Positions 7,675-34,381 of a DNA stretch of 34,474 nucleotides are shown here, piece after piece. The position numbers were made by a program, and so were the translations under genes. The notes under the pieces were generated by a model. That model worked only from the letters and a program-made list of their open reading frames with translations. It made no database searches and had not been told where the DNA came from. Origin of the DNA: Candidatus Dojkabacteria bacterium (GTDB lineage: Bacteria > Patescibacteriota > Dojkabacteria > SC72); NCBI GenBank assembly GCA_028704525.1, contig JAQWFF010000002.1, forward strand, positions 1-34,474, read 5' to 3'. The stretch's first letter is position 1. Every line of letters starts with the position of its first letter.

Positions 7675-8337
7675 CTAAAGATCTCCTTCTAATATTGCAG
7701 GTATCTCTGATGAATCTTTCTGCTCTGAGTTTTTAATATCTTTCGTTAATATCGCATGAGCAAGAGAATCAATTTCAAACCCTGAATAGTAAGACCCATA
7801 CCATTTTAATTCTTCTTTAAGCTCTGTAATTACAGCTTTAGCAGTGTTAACAACATAAGGAGCATTATTTTTTCGTGAATGATAAATACCAGCTAAAAGA
7901 GGAATTAATATGTGTTCATTTTGTCTACGATCTCCATCATTAATAGAGGAAAAGATAAGATCACGTGTCTCTTTTATTGTTGCATTTCTAACACTATCTG
8001 ATGGACTACTAAAGGTGTGTTTAAAAATATTTAAAGCCTCTTCGGCAAGTATAGGATTCGCTTCAAATAAATCTGCTGACAAAGATTGTCCCAAAGCCCT
8101 TACACTATACATTGCCTCGCTAAGTTCCTCAATAACGTTTGTCCAAGCAATTGATTTTAAGCCTTTTAAAGCCTTTTCTGCGATGTCTGGTTTATATTGA
8201 AAAACTTTAGGCGTTAGAAAGATTTTAGCTCTCATAGGACTATATTTCATAAAAAAGTCACGATATCCCATTTTCTGACAAAGATCCAAATCATGTTCCC
8301 ATAAACTCTTCTGTTCAGATTGATCTGTTTGATCCAT
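7675..8337 (-). CDS. Hypothetical protein (appears mostly alpha-helical by eye)
   Basis: 220-aa ORF with no recognisable motif. It is the only long ORF in this interval. Confidence 0.5.
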   Translation of the reverse strand: MDQTDQSEQKSLWEHDLDLCQKMGYRDFFMKYSPMRAKIFLTPKVFQYKPDIAEKALKGLKSIAWTNVIEELSEAMYSVRALGQSLSADLFEANPILAEEALNIFKHTFSSPSDSVRNATIKETRDLIFSSINDGDRRQNEHILIPLLAGIYHSRKNNAPYVVNTAKAVITELKEELKWYGSYYSGFEIDSLAHAILTKDIKNSEQKDSSEIPAILEGDL

Positions 8338-8471
8338 ATCCTAAGTAATTCAAATTATCATATAGTAATTATTATATAGCCGTTCTGGATGAAAAACAAT
8401 TCTTGATTCATCCAATAGAATTCTTGGATAGCAATTTAGATTAAAGTTCTATTTATCTACAAAAGATATAG

Positions 8472-8522
8472 TTGGACATATACGTAATGAGAATGGGACA
8501 AAAGAGATAGTATAAGAAAAGG
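8472..8522 (-). repeat. Family-1 repeat, copy C (internally deleted)
   Basis: TTGGACATATACGTAATGAGAATGGGACAAAAGAGATAGTATAAGAAAAGG. The TGTATAATCTAAT-ATG of the next gene follows. Confidence 0.6.
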
Positions 8523-8544
8523 ACATTATTTTGTATAATCTAAT

Positions 8545-8766
8545 ATGATTAATCAAGAATATGTGTATCATTCATCCAAGGTTAGTGGATTAAAAGTATT
8601 AGAACCTAGGTCAAGCACTCATAAAACACCTTGGGTATATGCTACTAAAGATATAGCTACAACAGCAATGTATCTTGAAGACAATTTTGATTTTATATGT
8701 CAAACAGGTTTTTCTAAAGACAAGCCATACATTTGGGAAAGATTCAAAGACATGAATATTTTGTGA
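8545..8766 (+). CDS. Small hypothetical protein (possibly a truncated gene)
   Basis: 73 aa. An extended -10 (TGTATAAT) lies 5 nt upstream of the ATG. The protein ends abruptly with no motif. Confidence 0.4.
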   Translation: MINQEYVYHSSKVSGLKVLEPRSSTHKTPWVYATKDIATTAMYLEDNFDFICQTGFSKDKPYIWERFKDMNIL

Positions 8767-8808
8767 AATTGTTTTATAATACCCTATAACTTTTGCTAAT
8801 TATTATAC

Positions 8809-9576
8809 TTGGTAGAACAGCAACCAGAAGAGGTCACAAAAATAACAGATTTTTCTAGAATTTTACCTATGGAGGATATGTATCTTCCTCTAGAAGATAA
8901 TATAGGTTCCAAAGCTGAACTAGGAGTGTATTGTAATAGATATGTTGAAAGAGATCTAACCAAAAAATTAGCAATAATATTAACAGGTTTTACATGTGCA
9001 GGTAAGGATACTGTAATGGATGAATTAGAATCCTTAGGACTTGTATATCATGTTGTTACAGCTACTTCTAGACCAAGAAGAATAGAGGAGCCTGAAGATA
9101 AATATCATTGGATTACAGTAAGAGAGAAAGGAGAGAAAGAAACAAATGAGGAATATGAAGAGAGTATTAAAAAAGACCATGATTTAGTAGAGTGTGATTG
9201 CCATTATAAACATGTTTATGGCTTACCAAGAAATTCTTTATTAGTAGAGGGTAGGGGTATTCCAGTTATAAGGCCAGATATAAATGGAACGAATACTTTA
9301 CATAAAGAGTTACCAAAATATGGATTTCAACCGATATCAATAGCAGTAGTTGCAGATAGTTGGGAACAGATATATAGAACTCTTTTAGAAGAAAGAGAAG
9401 AAACTCTAGGAGACAAGAATAGTAGGTTTATAGTAGATATAAATAGTGTTTCCAAATATAGTAATGTAGTAAACTACTTTTTACATAATAGTAGGGATGT
9501 GTATGGTGATATGAGTGGCTTAGAAAGGTCTGTTAGGGGAATGAGATATATAATTGAGATGTATACGAAAAAATAA
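8809..9576 (+). CDS. Guanylate-kinase-like nucleoside monophosphate kinase
   Basis: P-loop variant LTGFTCAGKDTV and VTATSRPRRIEEPEDKYHWIT (compare GK S.TTR.pR..E.dG.dY.F). The start is uncertain: TTG at 8809 or ATG at 8869. Confidence 0.55.
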   Translation: MVEQQPEEVTKITDFSRILPMEDMYLPLEDNIGSKAELGVYCNRYVERDLTKKLAIILTGFTCAGKDTVMDELESLGLVYHVVTATSRPRRIEEPEDKYHWITVREKGEKETNEEYEESIKKDHDLVECDCHYKHVYGLPRNSLLVEGRGIPVIRPDINGTNTLHKELPKYGFQPISIAVVADSWEQIYRTLLEEREETLGDKNSRFIVDINSVSKYSNVVNYFLHNSRDVYGDMSGLERSVRGMRYIIEMYTKK

Positions 9577-9642
9577 AAATTTAAAGATTAGATATTGTAT
9601 TTCCGTGTCTCAATAACTTTGTTTTTGATGAAGATAATAAAT

Positions 9643-9726
9643 GGGTCTTGTTGCAACCTTTAAAGAATGGTTGGACATACACGTCTGGTACCTAAAATGA
9701 GACAAATAAGACAGTATAAAAAAGGG
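9643..9726 (-). repeat. Family-1 repeat, copy D
   Basis: GGGTCTTGTTGCAACCTTTAAAGAATGGTTGGACATACACGTCTGGTACCTAAAATGAGACAAATAAGACAGTATAAAAAAGGG. The first 25 nt match the 3' flank of tRNA-Asp (GGGTCTTGTCGCAACCTTGAAAGAATGG). Confidence 0.75.
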
Positions 9727-9798
9727 ATAGGTTTTCTTATTCGGGAATAAATATGCTAAAATTAAATTGTTTATTACTTAATATCAGAATGTGTCTGT

Positions 9799-10332
9799 AT
9801 GGAAGAATTAGTATTAGAATTTCCAACTTATGCAAGAGAAAAAGATGCTAAAGCATATATTAAGGAACTAAGGAGCTTTAATTCTCAATTTAATGGTTGT
9901 GATGATCTAGAAAAATTTGAAGATTATCGAGAATGGGTTGACAGGGTTGTCGATTGGAACAAGGGTGTAAACTTACCAGATGATTATGCACAAGCTATAA
10001 CTTATTTTGTAGTTAGAGTTAAAGATAATAAAATTATAGGTATGGTAAACATTAGATACGGAGTAACAGAAGAAAATATCAAAAGAGGTGTGGGACATAT
10101 TGGTAGTGGAGTTAGACCTACTGAAAGAAGAAAGGGATATGGAACCGAGATTTTGAGAATATGTTTAGAAGAATGCAAAAAATATAATTTGCCAGAAATT
10201 CATTTGAACGTTAAGAAAGAAAATGTCAGTGCCATTAGAACTATAGAGAAAAACAACGGGGAATTAAATAAAAAGATTGTAATGGATAATGGGGAGATAT
10301 TTCTTAATTATATAATAATAGCGGATAATTAG
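9799..10332 (+). CDS. GNAT-family N-acetyltransferase
   Basis: GHIGSGVRPTERRKGYGTEILR carries the acetyl-CoA motif A (R-x-x-G-x-G). 177 aa. Confidence 0.75.
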   Translation: MEELVLEFPTYAREKDAKAYIKELRSFNSQFNGCDDLEKFEDYREWVDRVVDWNKGVNLPDDYAQAITYFVVRVKDNKIIGMVNIRYGVTEENIKRGVGHIGSGVRPTERRKGYGTEILRICLEECKKYNLPEIHLNVKKENVSAIRTIEKNNGELNKKIVMDNGEIFLNYIIIADN

Positions 10333-10516
10333 AACTTCCAGGCCCAAATAATCCTATCTTTGTAGCCCTTTGTGATTTTTAGACGTACCAATTACAAGAG
10401 TTGAATGAATAAAGCTTTTGTTGTACAATGATTTTCTATAAGTTGTTATATCAAGTATTATTAAAAATAAATATAAAACAATAGGTATTATAACAACGTC
10501 AAGCCCAATTGACAGA

Positions 10517-19220: not shown

Positions 19221-19289
19221 AATATTAGTCTAACAATTTAAAAGTATTGGAATATAGGCATTTAATCATATTCCTTGTATAATTATACC

Positions 19290-20360
19290 ATGTTAAAAAT
19301 TGATATAAACAAAAATAAAAAAGAAGCAATACAAAAAGCCATAGATGTTCTAAAGGATGGTGGATTAATAGTATATCCAACAGAAACATGCTATGGAGTT
19401 GGATGTGATGCAACAAATGACAAAGCACTACAAAAACTTCTTCAATACAAGAAATTCAGAGGTTCCAAACCAATATCCATAGCTGTATCAGACAGGAATA
19501 TGGTAGAGGAATATGTAGACATTAATGAGATGGCAGACAATATATACAGAAACTTTCTCCCAGGACCAATAACCGTTATATCAATTGGAAAGGGGAATCT
19601 AAAAGCACCGGTAGTATCAGCAAGTGGTGGAGTAGGAGTTAGATACCCAGACTATCAATTCACATTAGATCTAATTAAGGAATTTGGTAAACCAATAACA
19701 GCAACATCAGCAAATATGTCATACAGAAGTGCACCATATGATATTGAGAAGTTGATAGACAATCTTCCAAAGAAATCATTAGAGTTAATAGACATATTCT
19801 TAGATGCAGGACAACTATCTCACAATGAACCCTCTACAGTACTAGATACAACATTAAATGAACTATCTATTCTTAGACAGGGTAAACTACAATTTGAAGA
19901 TGCACTAGTTAGAAATAGAAAGGTTGGGGATATAATATCTAAAAATACAGAGGAGACTATTAAATATGGTTCTGATTTTGCAAAAAGATATCTTAAAGAA
20001 CAACCTGTACTAGTTGCACTCTCTGGGGAGCTAGGGGCAGGAAAGACCCAATTTACAAAAGGTATAGCAAAGGAATTGGGGGTAACTGAGACAGTTAATT
20101 CTCCAACATATACCATAATCAATGAGTATGAATATGGGAACAGGGTACTTGCACACATGGATACATGGAGATTAGAGAAGATAGCGGGTAGTGGTCTTGT
20201 AGAGCATTTAGAAAAGGGTGATATTGTAGTAGTAGAGTGGGCCGACAAATTCTTTGGTGAAATATCTGCACTATGTGACAATATGAATGTTAAGATGTAC
20301 AAGGTAGTTATCAAGTACATATCATTAACAGAAAGGAGCATTGAGATATATGAAGGATAA
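19290..20360 (+). CDS. Fused TsaC (Sua5/YrdC domain) and TsaE (YjeE P-loop) t6A biosynthesis protein
   Basis: The N-terminal half has VYPTETCYGVGCDA plus SANMS. The C-terminal half has LSGELGAGKTQFTKGIA and SPTYTIINEY. Start set at ATG 19290, 6 nt after TGTATAAT, not the track TTG at 19275. Confidence 0.8.
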   Translation: MLKIDINKNKKEAIQKAIDVLKDGGLIVYPTETCYGVGCDATNDKALQKLLQYKKFRGSKPISIAVSDRNMVEEYVDINEMADNIYRNFLPGPITVISIGKGNLKAPVVSASGGVGVRYPDYQFTLDLIKEFGKPITATSANMSYRSAPYDIEKLIDNLPKKSLELIDIFLDAGQLSHNEPSTVLDTTLNELSILRQGKLQFEDALVRNRKVGDIISKNTEETIKYGSDFAKRYLKEQPVLVALSGELGAGKTQFTKGIAKELGVTETVNSPTYTIINEYEYGNRVLAHMDTWRLEKIAGSGLVEHLEKGDIVVVEWADKFFGEISALCDNMNVKMYKVVIKYISLTERSIEIYEG

Positions 20361-22741: not shown

Positions 22742-22827
22742 GCCGAGGTGGTGGAATTGGCAGACACGCTACCTTGAGGTGGTAGTGGGAGTAAAATCCC
22801 TTGCAGGTTCAACTCCTGTCCCCGGCA
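22742..22827 (+). tRNA. tRNA-Leu (anticodon GAG), type II with a long variable arm, no encoded CCA
   Basis: GCCGAGG TG GTG GAATTGGCAGA CAC G CTACC TTGAGGT GGTAG, variable arm TGGGAGTAAAATCCCT, then TGCAGG TTCAACT CCTGT CCCCGGC A. There is one A:C mismatch at acceptor pair 5:68. Confidence 0.85.
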
Positions 22828-22830
22828 TAT

Positions 22831-22907
22831 GGACGACTAGCTCAGCTGGTTAGAGCATCTCGTTTACACCGAGAAGGTCATAGGTTCGATCCCTATGTCG
22901 TCCACCA
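22831..22907 (+). tRNA. tRNA-Val (anticodon TAC), CCA encoded
   Basis: GGACGAC TA GCTC AGCTGGTTA GAGC A TCTCG TTTACAC CGAGA AGGTC ATAGG TTCGATC CCTAT GTCGTCC A CCA. All stems pair. Confidence 0.95.
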
Positions 22908-24674
22908 TCCATGTTTTTCAGCCTGTAACTTCAGTTCAGGTTCTAGTGAGAAAAGCATTTCACCGAGCATCTTTGAGGGGATTTTCAATGATATTTTTAG
23001 TTTGTAAGGAATCATCTGTCCTTCTTTCTTTGGGCCCGAAACACTATCTGTTTTTCTTTTTGGTCTAGAGAAAATAATAATTTCGTCAACAATCATGTGT
23101 ATTAGAGAGTAGAGTTCTTGATCTGAGCCCTTTTCCTCAAGCATCTTAAGTGCATCCCCATATTTATCTTTAAAAATATTGAATACTTTTATATATTCGT
23201 GTGTATTCGTGAATATTGATAACTCACTTTCTAAGTCTTCTTTCTCTTTAATATATCGTTTATATTTCTTATCAAGGTCTTTGATTCTCTCAATCTTCTC
23301 TTCTTTTTTAATGTCTCCGTTTTGATACATTTCAATCACTCTAGACCTTGCAGAGGCATGTGTATTTAGAAGATCCAATAAGTTATCCAATTGTCCTTTC
23401 TTTCTTTTAATATCATTCTTGCTAGATTCTAGCTTCTGTTGATGATGGAATACTGGAGTTGGGTCTTTTATTAGATCGTATACTAGTTGTAGTACATGTT
23501 GTTCTAAAGGAATTGCAGGTAGGCTAATTGTATGACAAACAGTATCTCTTGTTTTGCTCTTGGATGTATTTTTACAACTACATTCATAATAATAAGCCAT
23601 TTCCCCTGTGCTTCTAACTTTGTGAGGCAGTCCATTCCAACTGTATGGTTCAGTGTGTTTTGTCGGATCAAAACAGTTTGCACATTTGAGTAACCCTTGT
23701 AAAAGATACAACCTTTGTTGCTTAGAATAGTTCCCTCTTCGTAGATGATTACTTCTTGACCTATATTCTTGAGCCTTTTGGAAAAGTTCTTTGTCTATTA
23801 TCGCTTGTTTGTGGCGATATATATCCCACTTATCTTGAGGAAGTTTATTACCATCTTTGCTTTTGTTGTAATATTGATTCCCAATATAAACTTCATCTTT
23901 TAGTATTCTACCTACAACTTCGGGATACCAGTGATACCTACCATGTCTACTACCCTTTCTCTTTTTGTTTGGATCTTCCTTGTGATGAATGAATCTGTAT
24001 TCAATAGGGCTAGGGACTTTGTGGTCTCGTAAATATTCTGCTATTTCTCCTTGACTGAATCTGTCATGAACAAACATATTGAAGATGGATCTTACAACTT
24101 CAGTTTCTTCTTTTTGGATAAGTAGCTTTTTGTTTTCATCTTTAACATAACCTAGTGGGGCAGTATTCATGAAGGCTCCTTTTTCTGCAGCTTGTTGTCT
24201 CCCAGCATGGGTCCTTTCTTTAATCGTTTCTAGTTCCAATTCTGCAATTACACCGATGATTCCCAGCATCGCTCTTCCGAAGGGAGTAGAGGTATCTATA
24301 CTTTCTTGGGATGAAAGAAATTCTATCTTCGGTTCTTGTTTCTCAAATATGTCTATTATTTCTAGCAGGATTTTTAACCGTCTTGCAAACCTATCTATTT
24401 TGTAAACAGCAACTATATCAAAAGGAGGTGTGTCTGATAGGGTTATATCTTCCATTAGCTTTCTAAAAGCGACTCTTTCCATGGGTTCTTTTGTTCCGCT
24501 CTCACCCTCATCAATGTAGATATATTCTTCTCCTGCAAGTTCGTATTCGCCACCTTTGGATTTAATAAGTCCTAGTAATGCTTCTCTCTGAAGATCTACC
24601 CCAAACATATCTATCTGTTCTTCGGTAGAAACCCTGATATATAGCGCTACTTTTTTCTTTTGTTTTTCTTCCAT
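22893..24674 (-). CDS. Large serine recombinase (integrase)
   Basis: N-terminal resolvase domain (VALYIRVSTEEQ, YKIDRFARR), Cys-rich zinc-ribbon region (LKCANCFD...YYECSCKN) and a C-terminal coiled coil. The last four codons plus the stop are the reverse complement of the tRNA-Val 3' end (22893-22907). Confidence 0.85.
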   Translation of the reverse strand: MEEKQKKKVALYIRVSTEEQIDMFGVDLQREALLGLIKSKGGEYELAGEEYIYIDEGESGTKEPMERVAFRKLMEDITLSDTPPFDIVAVYKIDRFARRLKILLEIIDIFEKQEPKIEFLSSQESIDTSTPFGRAMLGIIGVIAELELETIKERTHAGRQQAAEKGAFMNTAPLGYVKDENKKLLIQKEETEVVRSIFNMFVHDRFSQGEIAEYLRDHKVPSPIEYRFIHHKEDPNKKRKGSRHGRYHWYPEVVGRILKDEVYIGNQYYNKSKDGNKLPQDKWDIYRHKQAIIDKELFQKAQEYRSRSNHLRRGNYSKQQRLYLLQGLLKCANCFDPTKHTEPYSWNGLPHKVRSTGEMAYYYECSCKNTSKSKTRDTVCHTISLPAIPLEQHVLQLVYDLIKDPTPVFHHQQKLESSKNDIKRKKGQLDNLLDLLNTHASARSRVIEMYQNGDIKKEEKIERIKDLDKKYKRYIKEKEDLESELSIFTNTHEYIKVFNIFKDKYGDALKMLEEKGSDQELYSLIHMIVDEIIIFSRPKRKTDSVSGPKKEGQMIPYKLKISLKIPSKMLGEMLFSLEPELKLQAEKHGWWTT

Positions 24675-24704
24675 CTAAATAAGAAGGTATAGCTTGGAAC
24701 TTAA

Positions 24705-25103
24705 TTATGTAGATCTAACTCTCTTGTAGAGTTTGTGTAATAGGGATTTATTATCCTGGTCAATGTCTGTGACTACGACATCTAATATTCTTGATATGTT
24801 CTTTTCCTTAATCTCCCATTTTTTAGGAAGTACAAGTTGTATAAATCTAGGGGGATTTCCTGCATATAAATATCCATGATCTAGGGTAGCACCAAACATT
24901 TCTTCTTTGACCTTGTAATCATTGGGCTTTTGTAAGTAGCTATATAGCATGCTTTCTATGTTATCTCTCAATATGACAAAATAGGTGTTATCTTCAATTA
25001 CAATGGGAACGGCCGAGTGGTAATTATATTTAGTAAACTCCTGAGCAGTAGGCATAGTCTTTTGTACAAGGAAATACTTTCTAAGCTCTTCTAGAGTTGT
25101 CAT
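24705..25103 (-). CDS. Hypothetical protein adjacent to the integrase
   Basis: 132-aa ORF with no motif. Its position would suit an accessory or directionality factor, but that is speculation. Confidence 0.45.
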   Translation of the reverse strand: MTTLEELRKYFLVQKTMPTAQEFTKYNYHSAVPIVIEDNTYFVILRDNIESMLYSYLQKPNDYKVKEEMFGATLDHGYLYAGNPPRFIQLVLPKKWEIKEKNISRILDVVVTDIDQDNKSLLHKLYKRVRST

Positions 25104-25212
25104 ATTCTGATTATATCAAAGATGGGAGGCATCTTTTAAAATTTCTACCTAGAGCATATAATAAGCTATGTTACCTAAACCTAATATTTAGGCATGGTGA
25201 TGAAAAATAAAT

Positions 25213-25336
25213 CCAGATCAGTGTGTTAGGCGGTCTTCCGTCTCTCAATCACTGATCTGGTTACTAGGGGAAACCTTAGTAGAGGATACAGCAATGTACC
25301 TCTGTGAGCGGGAGACCACTTGTCTCAAAAACTCAC
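25213..25336 (+). ncRNA. Candidate structured RNA (four contiguous hairpins, two with GNRA loops)
   Basis: P1: 25213-25223 pairs with 25250-25260 (11 bp), with an inner 6-bp stem 25228-25233/25238-25243. P2: 25263-25280, 7 bp with a GAAA loop. P3: 25281-25303, 5+4 bp with a GCAA loop. P4: 25304-25336, 5-bp outer and 5-bp inner stems. The segment looks richer in G+C than the flanking intergenic DNA. TATAAT lies at 25157-25162 upstream. Confidence 0.5.
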
Positions 25337-25366
25337 AAGAATCAAATAACTTGATCAGAAGTTAGG

Positions 25367-26131
25367 ATGGAAAAGAATTCTTTTATCCCTTTTACAATTA
25401 TATCGTCAAAACTTTTTAGAATGGAACATGAATTGTTTCCATCTAACACCTCGTTCATTAAGAAAATTCTCCTGGCAATAGGGATCCCTCGTATTGATGT
25501 CCCTTCTTATTCAGCAAAGATTAAGGACTTGTATGCAAAGTTTGAAGTAATCCGGGACAAAACAACTGAAGCGGAGAGGGAAGCGATGAGTGAATTTACA
25601 GAGAAGGATGAGTTTATAAACAAGATGGATGAATGTATTATTGCTTTTTCTAAGGTTGTTGAAAGTTTAGAGAGGAAATTAAAAAATAACAAATCTTTAA
25701 AATTTGGAGAATTTGAGGAGTTAATAAATAACTATAAAGAGAAGAAGTTGGACCTGCTACAAGTTACCGAGAAGATCGTTACAGCAACAAGAAAAACTGA
25801 GGAAGAAACATGGAGTAATTTACATAAAAGTCTTGAAAAATGGGAGAATGAAGGAGATGACAAAAAAGGCCTTGATACAAGAGAAAAGAACCATGTTATT
25901 TCAAAGCAAACCGAAGATGGGCTATGGAAAGTCTTAATTAAGAATGATAGCGAAGAACTGGTATTTAAAAAGGCTAAAAAACTAGTAATAGAAAGAGGAT
26001 CAGCCACACCGAGTTTTATAAGTAGAACATTGCAGATAGGTCAGAATCAGGCTGCTAGAATATTCATGCGATTGCAAGATGAGAGGATTATAAGTAAAGA
26101 TTATCCTTATGAAGTATTAAAAAGTAACTAA
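25367..26131 (+). CDS. Coiled-coil protein with a C-terminal FtsK-gamma-like winged-helix DNA-binding domain
   Basis: The C-terminus KKLVIERGSATPSFISRTLQIGQNQAARIFMRLQDERIISK matches the FtsK gamma pattern (..aS.S.lQR.l.IGynRAar....Le..Giv). Confidence 0.5.
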   Translation: MEKNSFIPFTIISSKLFRMEHELFPSNTSFIKKILLAIGIPRIDVPSYSAKIKDLYAKFEVIRDKTTEAEREAMSEFTEKDEFINKMDECIIAFSKVVESLERKLKNNKSLKFGEFEELINNYKEKKLDLLQVTEKIVTATRKTEEETWSNLHKSLEKWENEGDDKKGLDTREKNHVISKQTEDGLWKVLIKNDSEELVFKKAKKLVIERGSATPSFISRTLQIGQNQAARIFMRLQDERIISKDYPYEVLKSN

Positions 26132-26268
26132 TTCTCTTTGCAACTGGGGGAGATGCTTACTATTCAGTTACCCATCATACATTTATTGGAGATTAAGGCA
26201 GTAGGGTTTGTCTAGGACTGTTTAAAGGTGTATTTACGAAGGCACTTATAGTGTGTATATAATATGAT

Positions 26269-26721
26269 ATGACAAAGAATAGGAGATTAACAAAGAAGCA
26301 AGAAATGTTTTGTAAGTTGTATGCTACAGATAGAGATTATTTCGGGAATGGTACACAAGCATATGCAGAAGCATATAACATTGATCTAACACAAAGTGGA
26401 AAGAAAAGTTCTGTAAGAACAAATGCATCTAGATTGCTAACATATGATCACATAATTAGGCGAATTGATAAGTTACTGGAACTGGGAGGACTGAGTGACA
26501 ACTCCGTTGACAAGGAGCTTTTGTTTTTAATAAAACAGAATGCTAATTTCAATGTTAAGCTAGGAGCAATTAGGGAATATAACTCTTTAAGAAAGCGGAT
26601 CATACACAAGGAAGAGGTTCATGTTAAATCGGATGTTAATCTAACAAGTTTCTTAAAAGAATTGAAGGATAAGTCATCGGAACAATTGATTGCTATCAAT
26701 CAGAGGATGTATGGTAAGTAA
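26269..26721 (+). CDS. Phage-type small terminase subunit (Terminase_2-like)
   Basis: LTKKQEMFCKLYA....GNGTQAYAEAYNID....NASRLL. TATAAT lies 5 nt upstream of the ATG. No large terminase follows. Confidence 0.55.
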   Translation: MTKNRRLTKKQEMFCKLYATDRDYFGNGTQAYAEAYNIDLTQSGKKSSVRTNASRLLTYDHIIRRIDKLLELGGLSDNSVDKELLFLIKQNANFNVKLGAIREYNSLRKRIIHKEEVHVKSDVNLTSFLKELKDKSSEQLIAINQRMYGK

Positions 26722-26768
26722 GGGATTTTCTTGAAGTGACCAATTTAAACTTATATAATAAGCTCAAT

Positions 26769-28490
26769 ATGAAAGAAGTATTTTGTCCTCATTGTACAAA
26801 AGAGTTAGTTTTAGATAGTAACGACTTGGCTCTTGAAGTGATAAGATGTCCATCCTGTGGCTGGTTCTTTCTTTTATCAGAAGCAGAGAATGGAGATTCG
26901 GGAGATGATTTGTTATTGATAAACATTGAAACTAAATACAACCAAGATGGATCAGTTAAGGCAAGGGCTGGATATAAAGCAAATATCGGTAGTAGACCTC
27001 TTGACCGAGTCGTAAATATATCTGCAGACAGCAAATACGAATTATCAGAAAAGATAAGAGAAACAGCATATGATCTCAAGGAACAGGCAAAAGCTGAGAA
27101 GTCGTCATTGGGTATTGAAGAACAGATGACAATGTTACAAGGTATTTTGGAACATGGCATTAAAACAAAGATAGATTTTAAGTGGGAAGATGAAAAGAGA
27201 AGGGATAAGTTTGAGAAGAAGAAACCTAGTTTTGACAAAACAAAGCCTAAAAAGGAAGATGTTTATCGTTCCTTATGGATATTTGAGAATATATTCAAAA
27301 AATATGCTGCTAAGAAAAACAAGGAGTACGAACAGAGGTTGAAAGAGCTAACAAAAGATTGGGAGAAGGAGAAAAAGGAATTTGAGAAAAGTTTGGCAGA
27401 ATGGGAAAAGGAGAAAGAGAGTTTTGAAAAAGAGAAAGAGGAATTTAACAAGAAAATTGACGAGAAGATAGAAAAACAGAAAAAAGGGAAGAAGGAGATT
27501 GTAGAGGAGTATTTTGAGAAGATTCTTGCATTATCAGAATATCCTACTAACTTCCCTCATAAATTTGATCTTGGATATAAAGCAGAGGAAAAGATGCTCG
27601 TTATTGAATATGTTCTTCCTGAGTACGAAGTTATTCCCAAATATCAAAGAGAAGAATATAAGAGAACAACAGGAGAAAGGAAGAAAGTACCTCTTTCAGA
27701 ATCTGCAAGAGAAAAGTTATATAACGAAGTTCTTTATTCTCTACCATTAAGAACACTACACGAGATATTTGAAAATGATAAATATGAGAATATAGATAGT
27801 GTTGTGTTTAATGGTTGGGTAGACACTCTTGATAAAGCAAAGGGAAAGAAAAAGCATATATGTATATTAACAGTTCATGCAAAGAAGGAAGACTTTGCAG
27901 AGATTGATTTAAGAAAAGTAGAACCAAGAGCTTGCTTCAACGGACTGAAAGGTGTTGGTAGTAGCAAATTAAGTAGTCTTGCTCCTGTTGCTCCAATTTT
28001 AAAACTTAATAAAGAGGATAAGAGGTTTATTAGTGCTGAAGAGGTCTTAAATGATGTTGATAGCTCTGTTAATATTGCCTCTATGGATTGGGAAGACTTT
28101 GAACATCTTGTAAGAGAAGTTTTTGAACAGGAGTTTGCAAAATCAGGGATGGAGGTTAAGGTAACTCAGTCAAGTAGAGATTTGGGTGTTGATGCTGTAG
28201 CTTTTGATCCAGATCCTTTTAGAGGAGGGAAAATTATTATTCAAGCTAAGCGATATACAAATACTGTGAAGGTAGAGTCTGTCAGAGCCTTGTATGGCAT
28301 TATGCAGGATGAAGGTGCTATGAAGGGTATTATTGTTACTACATCTGATTATGGTCCCGATGCTTATAAATTTGCACAGGGTAAGCCAATTACTTTGATA
28401 AATGGGAATAACCTGTTGTCAATGTTAGAGAAGTATGGGCATAAAGCAAGGATAGATATAAAAGAAGCTAAGAAACTTTTACAGGAGTAA
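26769..28490 (+). CDS. Zinc-ribbon / coiled-coil / Mrr-type restriction endonuclease-domain fusion protein
   Basis: N-terminal CPHC...CPSC, a central KE-rich coiled coil, and a C-terminal Mrr_cat-like core (DWEDFEHLVREVF...GVDAVAF...IIIQAKRY...GIIVTTSDYG). Start set at ATG 26769, 9 nt after TATAAT, not the track GTG at 26736. Confidence 0.65.
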   Translation: MKEVFCPHCTKELVLDSNDLALEVIRCPSCGWFFLLSEAENGDSGDDLLLINIETKYNQDGSVKARAGYKANIGSRPLDRVVNISADSKYELSEKIRETAYDLKEQAKAEKSSLGIEEQMTMLQGILEHGIKTKIDFKWEDEKRRDKFEKKKPSFDKTKPKKEDVYRSLWIFENIFKKYAAKKNKEYEQRLKELTKDWEKEKKEFEKSLAEWEKEKESFEKEKEEFNKKIDEKIEKQKKGKKEIVEEYFEKILALSEYPTNFPHKFDLGYKAEEKMLVIEYVLPEYEVIPKYQREEYKRTTGERKKVPLSESAREKLYNEVLYSLPLRTLHEIFENDKYENIDSVVFNGWVDTLDKAKGKKKHICILTVHAKKEDFAEIDLRKVEPRACFNGLKGVGSSKLSSLAPVAPILKLNKEDKRFISAEEVLNDVDSSVNIASMDWEDFEHLVREVFEQEFAKSGMEVKVTQSSRDLGVDAVAFDPDPFRGGKIIIQAKRYTNTVKVESVRALYGIMQDEGAMKGIIVTTSDYGPDAYKFAQGKPITLINGNNLLSMLEKYGHKARIDIKEAKKLLQE

Positions 28491-29648: not shown

Positions 29649-29673
29649 AAGTCTTGTTCTGAGAGAAATTGAA

Positions 29674-29709
29674 GTTTTAAGTTCCAAGCTATCCAACACA
29701 TTCCACCAT
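29674..29709 (+). repeat. Family-2 tRNA-Val-3'-end-like repeat, copy R0
   Basis: GTTTTAAGTTCCAAGCTATCCAACACATTCCACCAT. Same orientation as tRNA-Val. It aligns with R1 (TTTTAAGTTCCATGCATTTCAATATCGTCCACCAT). Confidence 0.65.
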
Positions 29710-29735
29710 TAGAATAGTTATTGAACAGTTGATTT

Positions 29736-31370: not shown

Positions 31371-31380
31371 AGAAATATTG

Positions 31381-31415
31381 TTTTTAAGTTCCATGCATTT
31401 CAATATCGTCCACCA
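31381..31415 (+). repeat. Family-2 repeat, copy R1
   Basis: TTTTTAAGTTCCATGCATTTCAATATCGTCCACCA. TCGTCCACCAT is identical to tRNA-Val 22897-22907 plus one base. It abuts the stop codon of the 31416-32054 gene. Confidence 0.75.
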
Positions 31416-32054
31416 TTACGTATTCAAGATCTTCCTTATTCTATCTACTGCTAAAGACATATTTCTTCTACCTTGTCCTACAGGATAATATGTAGGATAT
31501 ATCTCATACCCATTTAATATTTCTTTCTGGTCATCAACATAGTCACTAACAGAAATACTTCTATCCAAAAGAATAGATGATACCTGATTACCAAATGTAA
31601 CTATCTTTTTAGGATTAACAATGTCAATTTCTTTATACATTAAATCTAAATATTCTTTGAAAACAGAATTGTTAAGAGGTCTTGCATCAATTTGAGTACA
31701 TTTTGCAAGATTAGTTATAAATACAGAATGATTTTCTATATCTGTATATACATCGTTAGCAAATTCATAGTCCCATTCCTCAGATTTTAAAGTCTTTATT
31801 TTTAAATATATATCTGATTGTAATAATCCAATATCCCTATAAATATCCCATACTTGTTTTGTACCAATCCAAGGAGCTCTTAATCCTCTCCAAGAACAGG
31901 TACTAGAAATATTCCTACCTGTAGGATTCATAAAGATAAACATTATTTCAGGATCATTTATACAACCAGCTCCGTATATTGAAGAAAGAGTAGGGTCTCC
32001 ATATTTTAATTGTAGTTTATCGTACTCCTTATGTAATTGAATAACTTGTTGCAT
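31416..32054 (-). CDS. Divergent uracil-DNA-glycosylase-superfamily protein
   Basis: IMFIFMNPTGRN at the motif-A position, KIVTFGNQV, and YPTYYPVGQG at the motif-B position. 212 aa. TATAAT lies 9 nt upstream of the ATG. Confidence 0.4.
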   Translation of the reverse strand: MQQVIQLHKEYDKLQLKYGDPTLSSIYGAGCINDPEIMFIFMNPTGRNISSTCSWRGLRAPWIGTKQVWDIYRDIGLLQSDIYLKIKTLKSEEWDYEFANDVYTDIENHSVFITNLAKCTQIDARPLNNSVFKEYLDLMYKEIDIVNPKKIVTFGNQVSSILLDRSISVSDYVDDQKEILNGYEIYPTYYPVGQGRRNMSLAVDRIRKILNT

Positions 32055-32120
32055 AGATTAGAAATTATACTCTAAACAGATTCTGCTTTTAAGTTCGATG
32101 CACTTTAATATCGTCCACCA
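32055..32120 (+). repeat. Family-2 repeat, copy R2 (best-preserved pseudo tRNA-Val 3' end plus promoter)
   Basis: Minus-strand read: TGGTGGACGATATTAAAGTGCATCGAACTTAAAAGCAGAATCTGTTTAGAGTATAATTTCTAATCT-ATG. The tRNA-Val reverse complement reads TGGTGGACGACATAGGGATCGAACCTATG. Confidence 0.8.
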
Positions 32121-32921
32121 TTAGATTCCTCCAAACAACTTTTGCATATCCTCATCATTCAAATTCCTTATATTGTTAATAATAGACTTCTCCCCCTCTT
32201 TCAAAATTACTACATCTCCATTGAAATCTATATATTTAAAATTACTTTTATTATGAGAAACTTTGGGAGTAATCTCAATGTTTCTAAAGTTTTTAATCTT
32301 TTTTATTGAATCAGTGAAGGTCTTTTTTGAAATACCTAATAGATTCTTAATACCTTTTGATTTTTCACTTAATGATACGAACTGATGTAACTCCCATCTT
32401 TGTATATTAGGATATTGGGTAATTTCTTCATAGATATTATTCAAATCATCAATATTATTCTTATGAACTACAGTATTAATAGTTATTTTAAAATCATTAT
32501 TATTAAGAATCTTCAGGATAGTTTTAGTTTGTTTTAAAATATCTTCCCAGTTAGTTCTAAATTCTTCTGCAACTTTCTGAGAACTTCCATCAAAAGGAAT
32601 TCCAATTAAGGAAATCTTTTTAGCCATTTGAGCTTTGATAAATTTGTCGCTAAATTCTTTCCTCAAGAGTGGAATTCCTGTTGTATCCAGATGAATATTG
32701 AAATCAAGAGAGAAGAATATATTTATAATATCAAGAATATCTTCTCTAATTAGAGGGTCTCCACCACTTAGAGTTATCCCCAAGTATCCTGTGTTTTTAA
32801 GAGTAGAAGCTAATTTGGAAATTTCCTCTAGAGTTAGTTCTTTCCCCTCTCTTTTATCTAGATAACAGCCGTTACAGTTACCAAAGCAGTTCCCTGAAAC
32901 TAGAAAACAGATTTTCTTCAT
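32121..32921 (-). CDS. Radical SAM protein (single-gene module)
   Basis: NCFGNCNGCY (CX3CX2C) and LSGGDPLI. 266 aa. Confidence 0.75.
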   Translation of the reverse strand: MKKICFLVSGNCFGNCNGCYLDKREGKELTLEEISKLASTLKNTGYLGITLSGGDPLIREDILDIINIFFSLDFNIHLDTTGIPLLRKEFSDKFIKAQMAKKISLIGIPFDGSSQKVAEEFRTNWEDILKQTKTILKILNNNDFKITINTVVHKNNIDDLNNIYEEITQYPNIQRWELHQFVSLSEKSKGIKNLLGISKKTFTDSIKKIKNFRNIEITPKVSHNKSNFKYIDFNGDVVILKEGEKSIINNIRNLNDEDMQKLFGGI

Positions 32922-32987
32922 AGCTAAAGATTATATATTAAAACAATCTTACTTTTAAGTTATATGTATCTCAATCCTTTCCACCAT
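32922..32987 (+). repeat. Family-2 repeat, copy R3
   Basis: Minus-strand read: ATGGTGGAAAGGATTGAGATACATATAACTTAAAAGTAAGATTGTTTTAATATATAATCTTTAGCT-ATG. The promoter half is near-identical to R4. Confidence 0.75.
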
Positions 32988-32992
32988 TAGTA

Positions 32993-33547: not shown

Positions 33548-33612
33548 ATCTAAAGATTATATATTAAAACAATCTTACTTTTAAGTTCTGTGCACTTTAG
33601 TATCGTCCACCA
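33548..33612 (+). repeat. Family-2 repeat, copy R4 (overlaps the 3' end of the next ORF)
   Basis: Minus-strand read: TGGTGGACGATACTAAAGTGCACAGAACTTAAAAGTAAGATTGTTTTAATATATAATCTTTAGAT-ATG. Confidence 0.8.
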
Positions 33613-34381
33613 ATATATTTAATCTCCTGAATTCTATTCGGTTGTTTGTATACAGTATATTCCAATCGGTTCCAATATCTACCTTAAATTCAAACCTTGG
33701 TATATTCTCCTCTACTCTCATATTATCTATCCTTACTCCATTTGGAATTATACTAAATACCGATTGAGTTATTTTTAATTGATCACCATCTTTCAATACC
33801 ATAGCCATATGGGTATATGAACCTTCTTTGTTTTTCAAAAGTAATAGATCTAGATTAGAAAGAGAGTCTAAATCGGTAATAATAGTACTTGCAGTTCCAG
33901 AGAAAATTTCCACAGATGCTCTAGAAGCTCCTGTTCTATCTTCTTCTTGCCATGCCAAAGATTTTATAAATTGGTCTTCCATATTGATAGATTTAAAACC
34001 TTCAAGTAGGACATTGTATATATACCCAGAGCAATCTATACCGAGACCAAAGAGCTTCATAGATTCTCGTATACCATCGGGAGAAGCATTCTGTATATTA
34101 AAATCTCTAACTTTAGATATTTCTAAAAACGCAGACTTTAATTCTTCTGGTGTTCCTTTCCCTCTATACCAACCATACTTGCTTTTGTTCCCTTTATATA
34201 ATTTATGTACTTCTTTAATTCTTTCTTCATCTATACCAGATTGTTTCATTAGAGAAAGAAACTCTTGTTCTACAAAGTTTATTGCATATGGACATGATAT
34301 CTTTTGGTTTGATATATCTAAATTAAGATATCTATCAATATTCTCTCTAACATATTTATTTAGTTTTTCTTTTTGAATCAT
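33581..34381 (-). CDS. NlpC/P60-like (papain-fold) cysteine peptidase-like protein, no signal peptide
   Basis: LGIDCSGYIYNVL (the Cys nucleophile context) and LDLLLLKNKEGSYTHMAMVL (the His context). The last 10 codons are encoded by repeat R4. Confidence 0.5.
   Translation of the reverse strand: MIQKEKLNKYVRENIDRYLNLDISNQKISCPYAINFVEQEFLSLMKQSGIDEERIKEVHKLYKGNKSKYGWYRGKGTPEELKSAFLEISKVRDFNIQNASPDGIRESMKLFGLGIDCSGYIYNVLLEGFKSINMEDQFIKSLAWQEEDRTGASRASVEIFSGTASTIITDLDSLSNLDLLLLKNKEGSYTHMAMVLKDGDQLKITQSVFSIIPNGVRIDNMRVEENIPRFEFKVDIGTDWNILYTNNRIEFRRLNILVDDTKVHRT

Follow-up and report, generated by a model that had tools for sequence, protein, structure and literature searches.

What is encoded in the 263-nt spacer at positions 25,104-25,366 of a Candidatus Dojkabacteria bacterium contig (JAQWFF010000002.1, assembly GCA_028704525.1), and how does it relate to the open reading frame (ORF) that starts behind it at position 25367? 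The DNA analyzed comprises positions 1-34,474 of the forward strand of this contig; this whole stretch of 34,474 nt is referred to as the window. A previous reading made from the letters alone (the sequence-only reading) had described four hairpins in the spacer, had matched them to no RNA family, and had offered three options: a stand-alone non-coding RNA, a structured 5' leader of the 25367 gene, or a DNA-level element of a mobile island. Our analysis identifies the element, with near certainty, as a LOOT RNA (RF03000), and the locus is a divergent new member of this already catalogued family. The spacer is best read as the regulatory head of the island's rightward transcript and not as junk. 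Taken as a whole, the reading we favor, a LOOT RNA in a mobile island acting in cis as a leader or attenuator of a cargo gene, has about an even chance of being correct.

The spacer contains a LOOT RNA

The window was scanned against Rfam 15. On the + strand only, positions 25172-25300 match LOOT with 54.6 bits, which is above the gathering score of 46.4 bits, and the match covers model positions 1-121 of 121 (E = 8.9e-8 for the whole window, 1e-9 locally). The Rfam/Infernal scan that had been suggested as a check thus supplies the family. Besides LOOT, the scan of the spacer returned nothing near significance. Even at E up to 10, group I introns (Intron_gpI) had no match in the window, and P4 CI or P1 C4-type immunity RNAs gave no match either.

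The window element shares with the family the order of P1 (CCUAAAC/GCAUGG), a long P2, P3 with a GAAA loop and P4 with a GNRA loop. Positions 25174-25180 and 25192-25197 equal the upper-case CCUAAaC...GCAUGG consensus of LOOT P1 exactly, whereas the upper P2 of the window (6 bp) aligns poorly to the model, with several pairs flagged as non-standard. Since the Rfam match stops at P4, the hairpin at 25303-25337 lies outside the model. The elements of the spacer are as follows; P1, the linker and P2 to P4 are placed by the Rfam alignment together with the fold.

25172-25199, + strand: P1/P1a hairpin, placed by the upper-case consensus bases of the Rfam alignment and by the fold
25172-25175 with 25196-25199, + strand: outer pairing of P1, UACC with GGUG
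25180-25184 with 25188-25192, + strand: P1a pairing, CCUAA with UUAGG
25200-25212, + strand: A-rich single-stranded linker from P1 to P2
25213-25260, + strand: P2 as a whole
25213-25223 with 25250-25260, + strand: lower stem of P2, perfect over 11 of 11 bp
25224-25249, + strand: P2 apex, containing a 6-bp local hairpin (25228-25233 with 25238-25243)
25261-25282, + strand: P3 hairpin, stem 25262-25269 with 25274-25281, GAAA tetraloop at 25270-25273
25282-25302, + strand: P4 hairpin, GCAA tetraloop at 25291-25294
25303-25337, + strand: local 3' hairpin outside the Rfam model, outer stem GUGAG/CUCAC and inner stem GAGAC/GUCUC
25227-25241, + strand: 5' strand of a long-range helix, pairing with 25308-25322 and forming a pseudoknot with P2
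25308-25322, + strand: 3' strand of this helix, homologous to the terminator-like family tail GGUGGGCUUUUUGU; the window reads GCGGGAGACCACUUG
25338-25366, + strand: remainder of the leader up to the start codon, conserved in the subtype of the window and holding CUUGAUCAGAAG at 25350-25361

All four hairpins described before between 25213 and 25336 (an 11-bp outer stem with a 6-bp inner stem, and the stems with GAAA and GCAA loops) are found at these coordinates. The element begins earlier, though, and a fifth hairpin, P1 at 25172-25199, had been missed; the fourth hairpin is present at 25303-25337 but overlaps 25308-25322, the strand that pairs with the P2 apex throughout the family. The + strand of the spacer folds with -88.2 kcal/mol compared with -55.9 +/- 4.6 kcal/mol for dinucleotide shuffles (z = -7.03; none of 200 reaches this value), which answers the folding-energy check in favor of structure, while the - strand is weaker against its shuffles (z = -5.5). 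The spacer had also been described as richer in G+C than the flanking intergenic DNA, and this holds: the core at 25172-25336 has 43% G+C and the spacer 38%, compared with 33% for the window and 20-37% for RNA-free intergenic spacers.

LOOT stems from the comparative screens of Weinberg and Breaker (Weinberg et al., 2017, PMC5737381); the main text of that paper does not discuss it. It has been termed a "metagenomic-based" family (PMC7779021), and further mentions are purely methodological (PMC7657543, PMC11701678). Our literature search found no functional study of LOOT; its mentions come from database and method papers. LOOT is one of many well-conserved orphan RNAs, and its setting can now be placed in integrated, phage-like serine-recombinase elements, mostly of Patescibacteria, where it stands immediately before a variable accessory gene.

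Relatives of the window element

Searches with the spacer DNA found no match among phage and plasmid records, and the 254-aa protein encoded downstream has no close relatives in genome or viral contigs. Therefore, LOOT loci were gathered by RNA sequence patterns that use the receptor hairpin and the P3 loop as anchors. This fixes the receptor and part of P3 in the sample, and the conservation of these bases accordingly rests on the independent Rfam consensus. More than 200 relatives were obtained from viral, genome and metagenome contigs, and the family counts given here refer to the matches listed: 8 LOOTs among the 117 matches listed for viral contigs, at least 120 matches in species-representative genomes, and at least 120 in metagenome contigs, where 92 of those listed passed the stem filter. 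In an Rfam check of 28 relatives, all 28 were LOOT with 52-95 bits. Among the 120 genome records listed, 87 carry Patescibacteria or candidate phyla radiation (CPR) names, 21 are unnamed "bacterium" metagenome-assembled genomes and 12 have other labels.

The divergent subtype of the window has five other members (L116, L317, L325, L330, L333), and these score lowest in the family, at 52-57 bits. Nearly identical DNA is present in a landfill metagenome; oil-field and sludge metagenomes contain partial matches. Similarity between subtype members starts at about 25139-25157, and the block between the -10 box and the start codon (25157 to about 25364) has 92-95% identity among the elements. Its flanks are 67-71% identical or unalignable, and the downstream ORFs differ among members. 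In contrast to most members of the family, the window lacks a U-rich 3' end and the 5' leader motif ACAAYUNAAUA; it has instead a conserved 3' extension up to the start codon. Within the subtype, the P4 loop is GUAA in three members, and both stems of the local 3' hairpin at 25303-25337 are invariant while its loop is variable.

Covariation of the stems and a long-range helix

The stems were assessed in an alignment (A1) of 124 LOOTs including their 3' flanks, which were aligned with MAFFT without structural information. Overall, 90.0% of the cells are paired compared with 71.3% in shuffles, a value reached by none of 500, and with 36-45% in slid controls. The covariation score is 0.513 versus 0.197 in shuffles (0 of 500) and at most 0.14 for slid partners. 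The covariation check in homologs proposed earlier thereby turned out in support of the stems. P3 is 99.5% paired, with changes on both sides in seven of its eight pairs, P4 is 93% paired with covariation, P1a 94%, and the lower stem of P2 84% despite alignment gaps. The GAAA tetraloop of P3 is invariant in the family; here the loop was fixed by the search pattern, and the Rfam consensus is independent of it. Closer to the window, A-U at the P2 pair 25217-25256 is replaced by G-C in the other five members of the subtype and in contigs of four RNA-library runs.

Besides these stems, the alignment reveals a helix between the 5' half of the P2 apex (A1 columns 72-87) and the tail behind P4 (columns 170-185). 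It consists of 16 pairs, 14 of which change on both sides, and it is 90.2% paired compared with 76.5% in shuffles (0 of 500 reach it) and 43-54% in slid controls. The makeup of single pairs ranges widely, with AU 55, CG 35, GC 20 and UG 8 at one pair and AU 63 and GC 51 at another, and at least 25 apex-tail sequence types occur. Cognate apex-tail duplexes have a mean energy of -20.4 kcal/mol compared with -11.6 kcal/mol for non-cognate pairings. The result was replicated in 80 independent metagenome LOOTs, in which helix pairing is 0.859 versus 0.766. We therefore regard this helix as real with high confidence. Because it crosses the lower stem of P2, it is a pseudoknot, and no part of it is covered by the Rfam model, which stops at P4. 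In the window, the helix pairs 25227-25241 with 25308-25322 in 14 of the 16 family columns, and the mismatch of the window falls at the conserved mismatch column of the family.

The apex and the tail each have a local partner as well. The local apex hairpin, which is the upper P2 of Rfam, is only 49% paired as aligned by MAFFT and the local tail hairpin 81%; an alignment-free test rescues the apex hairpin (-5.2 kcal/mol across the family versus -1.5 for shuffles), whereas the tail hairpin stays weak (-3.1 versus -2.3). In the window, the hairpin at 25303-25337 competes with the long-range helix for 25312-25322, with -10.3 kcal/mol on its own compared with -16.4 to -22.5 kcal/mol for the apex-tail duplex. 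In L116 and L333, C is replaced by U at 25231 and at 25309, and G by A at 25240; linked in this way, the three changes keep both the local apex hairpin and the long-range helix. As a single event this triple change is anecdotal, but it is the signature of two alternative pairings, both of them maintained. A further pairing, of CCUAA/UUAGG of P1 with the ribosome-binding region, had been proposed by RNAfold and was rejected, as it is not conserved in the subtype.

A tetraloop receptor variant in P1

The asymmetric internal loop of P1, CCUAAAC/GCAUGG, is a variant of the 11-nt GAAA tetraloop receptor. The classical receptor, CCUAAG...UAUGG, is found in group I and group II introns and in RNase P. 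In each, CC/GG closes an asymmetric loop with UAA in one strand and AU in the opposite one, and the RNA that holds the loop also has a GAAA hairpin; the sole difference is that the canonical closing G-U is replaced in LOOT by an A opposite a C. Considering this receptor-like P1 together with the invariant GAAA on P3, a compact docked fold is suggested, in which the P3 loop presumably docks into P1.

The identical variant, CCUAAACC...GGCAUGG, forms P8 of three phage group I introns confirmed by Rfam:

L027, 7842-8176, - strand: group I intron with the receptor variant as P8
L105, 1561-1892, + strand: group I intron with the receptor variant as P8
L007, 8321-8664, - strand: group I intron with the receptor variant as P8

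In the Azoarcus intron, too, the canonical receptor is located in P8. What the window and these introns share is the P8-like receptor hairpin only. By eye, L084, L009, L017 and L044 are also introns with a CCUAAACC...GGCAUGG P8 hairpin, and several of the intron candidates appear to lie inside tRNA genes, as their sequence continues into the T-arm and the acceptor 3' end. Another RNA-like element, on the viral contigs L091, L051, L025, L074 and L094, begins with the same receptor hairpin and continues with GGCAUGGUGUAAACA...GGGUUUUGU...GAAAC directly before an ATG; by eye, it is not LOOT.

Tetraloops and their receptors are typical of RNA assemblies, and this bears on a reading of LOOT as an architectural or assembling RNA. 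In such a case, apex and tail would pair between molecules as a domain-swapped dimer or oligomer, or the RNA would form a protein-binding particle, with a role in the life cycle of the element (packaging, replication or anti-defence) by analogy to phi29 pRNA or ROOL/GOLLD. Phage-borne ornate RNAs do form homo-oligomers (PMC12286853). By geometric estimate, a 16-bp helix formed from a loop that is closed by an 11-bp stem, with linkers of 1-2 and 6-8 nt, is sterically tight within one molecule, and terminase genes lie 0.8-1.1 kb downstream in 16-24 of the 129 loci listed. On the other hand, the helix can be drawn in one molecule if the linkers are extended, RNAfold offers a nested alternative of comparable energy, and no conserved protein partner is encoded nearby. 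We consider an assembling role quite unlikely.

Promoter, transcript ends and RNA libraries

Two promoter-like sites lie back to back ahead of P1:

25135-25162, + strand: promoter-like site, -35 TTTAAA at 25135-25140, 16-nt spacer, -10 TATAAT at 25157-25162
25110-25139, - strand: promoter-like site, TTAAAA, 18 nt, TG-TATAAT

The first has 10 of 12 consensus matches and a predicted transcription start at about 25168-25170. The TATAAT at 25157-25162 had been proposed to drive the RNA, which gains weight from its being invariant and at a fixed distance in all six subtype members, with P1 beginning 10 nt after it; the promoter itself is a prediction. The second site, judged by its consensus match only, is a candidate promoter for the divergent operon of a 132-aa ORF and the integrase gene.

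In most other LOOTs, hexamers resembling a -10 box are enriched 19-29 nt ahead of P1, and the motif ACAAYUNAAUA stands at the expected transcription start in 83 of the 128 loci listed (sets L118-L237 and L238-L357), 9-24 nt upstream of P1 and about 6-7 nt after the hexamer. This motif is absent from the subtype of the window and from the Rfam model. Its ACAA could pair with the UUGU at the 3' end, both of which are nearly invariant and so offer no covariation. The 16-bp apex-tail helix, the reading of P1 as a tetraloop receptor and this promoter-proximal leader motif are additions to the current LOOT model, and the extended structure and its setting lead to testable hypotheses on the control of termination and read-through, on a two-state switch and on dimerization.

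At the other end of most LOOTs, the long-range helix runs into UUUUU-G-U, with U as the majority base in tail columns 179-183. The typical layout, an A-tract, a G+C-rich stem, a one-base mismatch and a U-tract, resembles the anatomy of an intrinsic terminator, the "loop" of which would hold P3, P4 and what is left of P2. The local tail hairpin, with its small energy difference to shuffles, is too weak to serve as the terminator stem. In the window, the tail reads ACUUGU, a degenerate U-tract, and a terminator scan of 24600-26300 found no intrinsic terminator.

As for expression, relatives of the window element, with 90-99% identity, are represented in contigs of four RNA-library runs, which come from activated sludge, sludge and an unspecified metagenome; the coverage extends from 25171/25179 to 25328/25362. 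One contig continues 57 nt past the fourth hairpin, and one reaches from the promoter region to inside the ORF. A CPR-type LOOT is likewise present in RNA-run contigs, and these extend beyond its U-tract. As low-depth assemblies without direction that may contain DNA, these contigs speak for presence in RNA libraries and not for transcript ends. With this qualification, the proposal of a structured plus-strand RNA driven by the TATAAT is borne out by the Rfam match, the covariation in more than 200 relatives, the invariant -10 box of the subtype and the RNA-library contigs covering the element.

A cis-acting leader or a stand-alone RNA?

In most relatives, the helix with its U-tract at the 3' end is followed within a few dozen nucleotides by a co-oriented, highly variable ORF, and on this ground we propose that LOOT acts as a cis-leader. 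The ORF is co-oriented in 104 of the 119 loci listed (87%), with a median gap of 36 nt. Of the three options left by the sequence-only reading, the 5' leader of the 25367 gene fits best, because the conservation of the subtype runs from the -10 box to the start codon; the stand-alone ncRNA is possible, and the DNA-level element is unsupported. Taken by itself, a role of LOOT as cis-leader or attenuator is a tentative assignment, to which we give slightly less than an even chance.

In the mechanism that we propose, transcription would run rightwards from the element's own promoter (-10 at 25157-25162), and LOOT would form the first ~195 nt of a transcript that enters the 25367 ORF. The four hairpins P1 to P4 would fold into a compact domain with the P3 GAAA in the P1 receptor. 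The P2 apex would first be locked in its local hairpin, until the emerging tail captures it to form the terminator-like long-range helix. Termination would leave a stable, end-protected RNA that accumulates and would limit read-through into the cargo gene, so that the choice between the two apex pairings sets the amount of transcript and translation that reaches this gene. For the window copy, mostly read-through is expected, because its U-tract is degenerate and the local hairpin competes for the same strand; here the RNA would serve mainly as the 5' leader of the FtsK-gamma gene.

At a subset of loci, the 3' strand of P2 may also pair with the translation start region. About 13% of the loci listed carry a copy of the P2 5' strand (8-18 nt, with an A-rich linker) 0-11 nt before the ATG. 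Exact repeats of the P2 strand of at least 8 nt occur in 27 of the 210 loci listed compared with 2.8% for non-cognate comparisons, and repeats of at least 10 nt in 15 of 210 compared with 0.4%. Examples are L208, L118, L143, L340, L158, L213, L303, L237, L307, L328, L127, L231 and L252, and in the window CUUGAUCAGAAG at 25350-25361 is a partial copy of the P2 5' strand; in subtype relatives, an A-to-G change at 25354 in this copy accompanies a change in P2. Such copies could pair with the P2 3' strand and thus control translation, or be a repeat at the DNA level.

In comparison with known systems, LOOT resembles terminator/anti-terminator leaders in that the 5' half of the P2 apex has two exclusive partners, a local one and the downstream strand with the U-tract, and in lying in a 5' leader, with a co-oriented ORF beginning a few dozen nucleotides further on. 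Unlike in these leaders, the stem is long-range, encloses P3 and P4 and crosses P2 as a pseudoknot, the genes behind it are functionally mixed, and the window copy lacks a proper U-tract. Type III toxin-antitoxin systems (ToxIN-like) have the same succession of promoter, structured RNA, terminator and ORF, with no room for a separate promoter; in contrast to these, the LOOT RNA is not a tandem repeat array, and the proteins downstream fall into hundreds of unrelated clusters without a conserved endoribonuclease family. A metabolite riboswitch, which would be recognized by a coherent set of regulated genes, does not fit this diversity either.

Several observations weigh against a cis-acting role. 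The 625 neighboring proteins form 459 clusters without a common downstream function, which is unusual for a riboswitch-like element, and 15 of the 119 loci listed (13%) have no co-oriented ORF downstream. The P2-strand repeat near the translation start is confined to a minority of loci. The stability of the long-range helix is about four times that of the apex hairpin, and the helix could therefore belong to the mature fold constitutively instead of acting as a switch. Consensus promoter matches are no commoner here than in shuffled sequence, the RNA-run evidence comes without transcript ends and is possibly derived from DNA, and Rfam lists LOOT under the type "Gene; sRNA", that is, as a small RNA (sRNA).

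This Rfam class, as well as the 13% of loci listed without a co-oriented ORF, would suit a stand-alone, trans-acting sRNA, for example a regulator of lysogeny or immunity like the P4 CI or P1/P7 C4 RNAs. The apex would then be the specificity determinant, and the variable ORF nearby would merely reflect a hot spot for cargo insertion. Most LOOTs end in a helix and U-tract as a terminated RNA does, they lie in the lysogeny-proximal region divergent from the integrase operon, and the at least 25 covarying apex-tail types are reminiscent of hetero-immune specificity classes. As in the P4 and P1/P7 RNAs, a structured RNA stands at the start of a mobile-element transcript and is complementary to a later segment of the same transcript; unlike in these, the complementarity lies inside the RNA itself. 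We searched flanks of up to ~8 kb for P4/C4-like target boxes: apex-complementary sites elsewhere in the loci were found in 17 of 124 cases compared with 8-17 for non-cognate apexes, which is no excess. Besides, the candidate seed is base-paired to its own tail in the folded RNA, there is no match to the models of C4-type RNAs, and the subtype of the window is conserved through its 3' extension to the start codon, with no U-tract. A trans-acting sRNA is therefore somewhat unlikely in our judgement.

A more far-reaching version of the cis-leader would be a two-state device of mobile elements in Patescibacteria and in uncultured bacteria related to them. Its domain, stabilized by the tetraloop and its receptor, would decide upon a cellular or phage signal whether the apex is paired locally or captured by the tail, either its own, giving a pseudoknotted long-range terminator, or that of a second molecule, giving a dimer; in both cases the cargo gene would be gated. 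We consider this unlikely. If true, LOOT would be a generic, portable "expression cassette head" for prophage accessory genes, and leaders of this type, responding to a signal, might form a new class.

The mobile island

The neighborhood of the spacer in the window comprises the following genes:

22742-22907: tRNA-Leu and tRNA-Val genes, tRNA-Val at 22831-22907
22893-24674, - strand: 593-aa large serine recombinase, abutting the tRNA-Val gene
24705-25103, - strand: 132-aa ORF without family match, in a divergent operon with the recombinase (22893-25103)
25367-26131, + strand: 254-aa ORF with a C-terminal FtsK-gamma winged-helix domain, in the "cargo" position

Behind LOOT, the FtsK-gamma ORF is followed by a small terminase subunit, an Mrr-type nuclease fusion and an NYN-domain protein. 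L116 has the same divergent arrangement of 132-aa ORF and recombinase. The stop and the last codons of the recombinase overlap the 3' end of tRNA-Val (22893-22907). Insertion at a tRNA gene with a long segment in common is less typical of serine recombinases than of tyrosine recombinases. Downstream of the intact gene, the 3' part of tRNA-Val recurs in five diverged copies, ending in ...TCCACCATTA, at 29664-29711, 31371-31418, 32076-32123, 32942-32989 and 33568-33615, 0.6-1.7 kb apart; each of the last four comes immediately after the stop of one minus-strand gene. They look like a series of remnants of attachment sites, left by repeated integrations at tRNA-Val. With the tRNA-Val gene and the first repeat as its ends, the first island would span ~22.9-29.7 kb (6.8 kb), with shorter remnants behind it.

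A comparable setting is common in the family. Of the 129 loci listed, 67 have a large serine recombinase; it lies upstream on the opposite strand in 57 of 129 (median distance 1.16 kb), and 46 of the 76 listed loci with at least 3 kb of upstream sequence have one. The independent metagenome set gives 34 of 92 loci, 26 of them with the recombinase upstream on the opposite strand. From downstream of LOOT, genes for a ParB-methylase, a small helix-turn-helix or terminase-like protein and a large terminase converge.

Given this setting, the hairpins might also act as DNA, as the sequence-only reading had envisaged with a single-strand origin, a recombinase site or a packaging site. The element does lie in a mobile island, beside the recombinase gene and 1 kb from the small terminase gene, and the - strand also folds better than its shuffles. 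Against this, the covariance-model match is confined to the + strand, many of the conserved pairs are G-U and would be lost on the complementary strand, and the GNRA loops and the receptor motif are tertiary elements of RNA; these G-U pairs and the compensatory changes are specific to the + strand RNA. Moreover, the junctions of the island are at tRNA-Val and the repeats of its 3' fragment, 2.3 kb and 4.4 kb away from LOOT, and there is no similarity to any phage or plasmid record. A function at the DNA level is thus very improbable.

With regard to the gene content of the subtype elements, nuclease-type defence genes occur in the window (26736-28490, Mrr_cat fusion) and in L325 (GmrSD, and FtsK/SpoIIIE with gamma domain). 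FtsK-like DNA-binding or translocase genes stand beside the small terminase gene, with no capsid genes in view, and this gene set resembles that of a phage satellite or small integrative element rather than that of a full prophage. On the viral contig L019 (oriented 7677-10345), LOOT lies between the genes of an RVT_1 reverse transcriptase and a NucS_C-like nuclease, all on one strand; in L029, LOOT is followed by the same NucS_C-like nuclease gene. Apart from the island, a single ORF of the window at 19275-20360 combines Sua5/YrdC and TsaE domains and overlaps the next gene, TsaD, which makes up a compact cluster for the synthesis of t6A (N6-threonylcarbamoyladenosine) just upstream of the enolase and tRNA genes.

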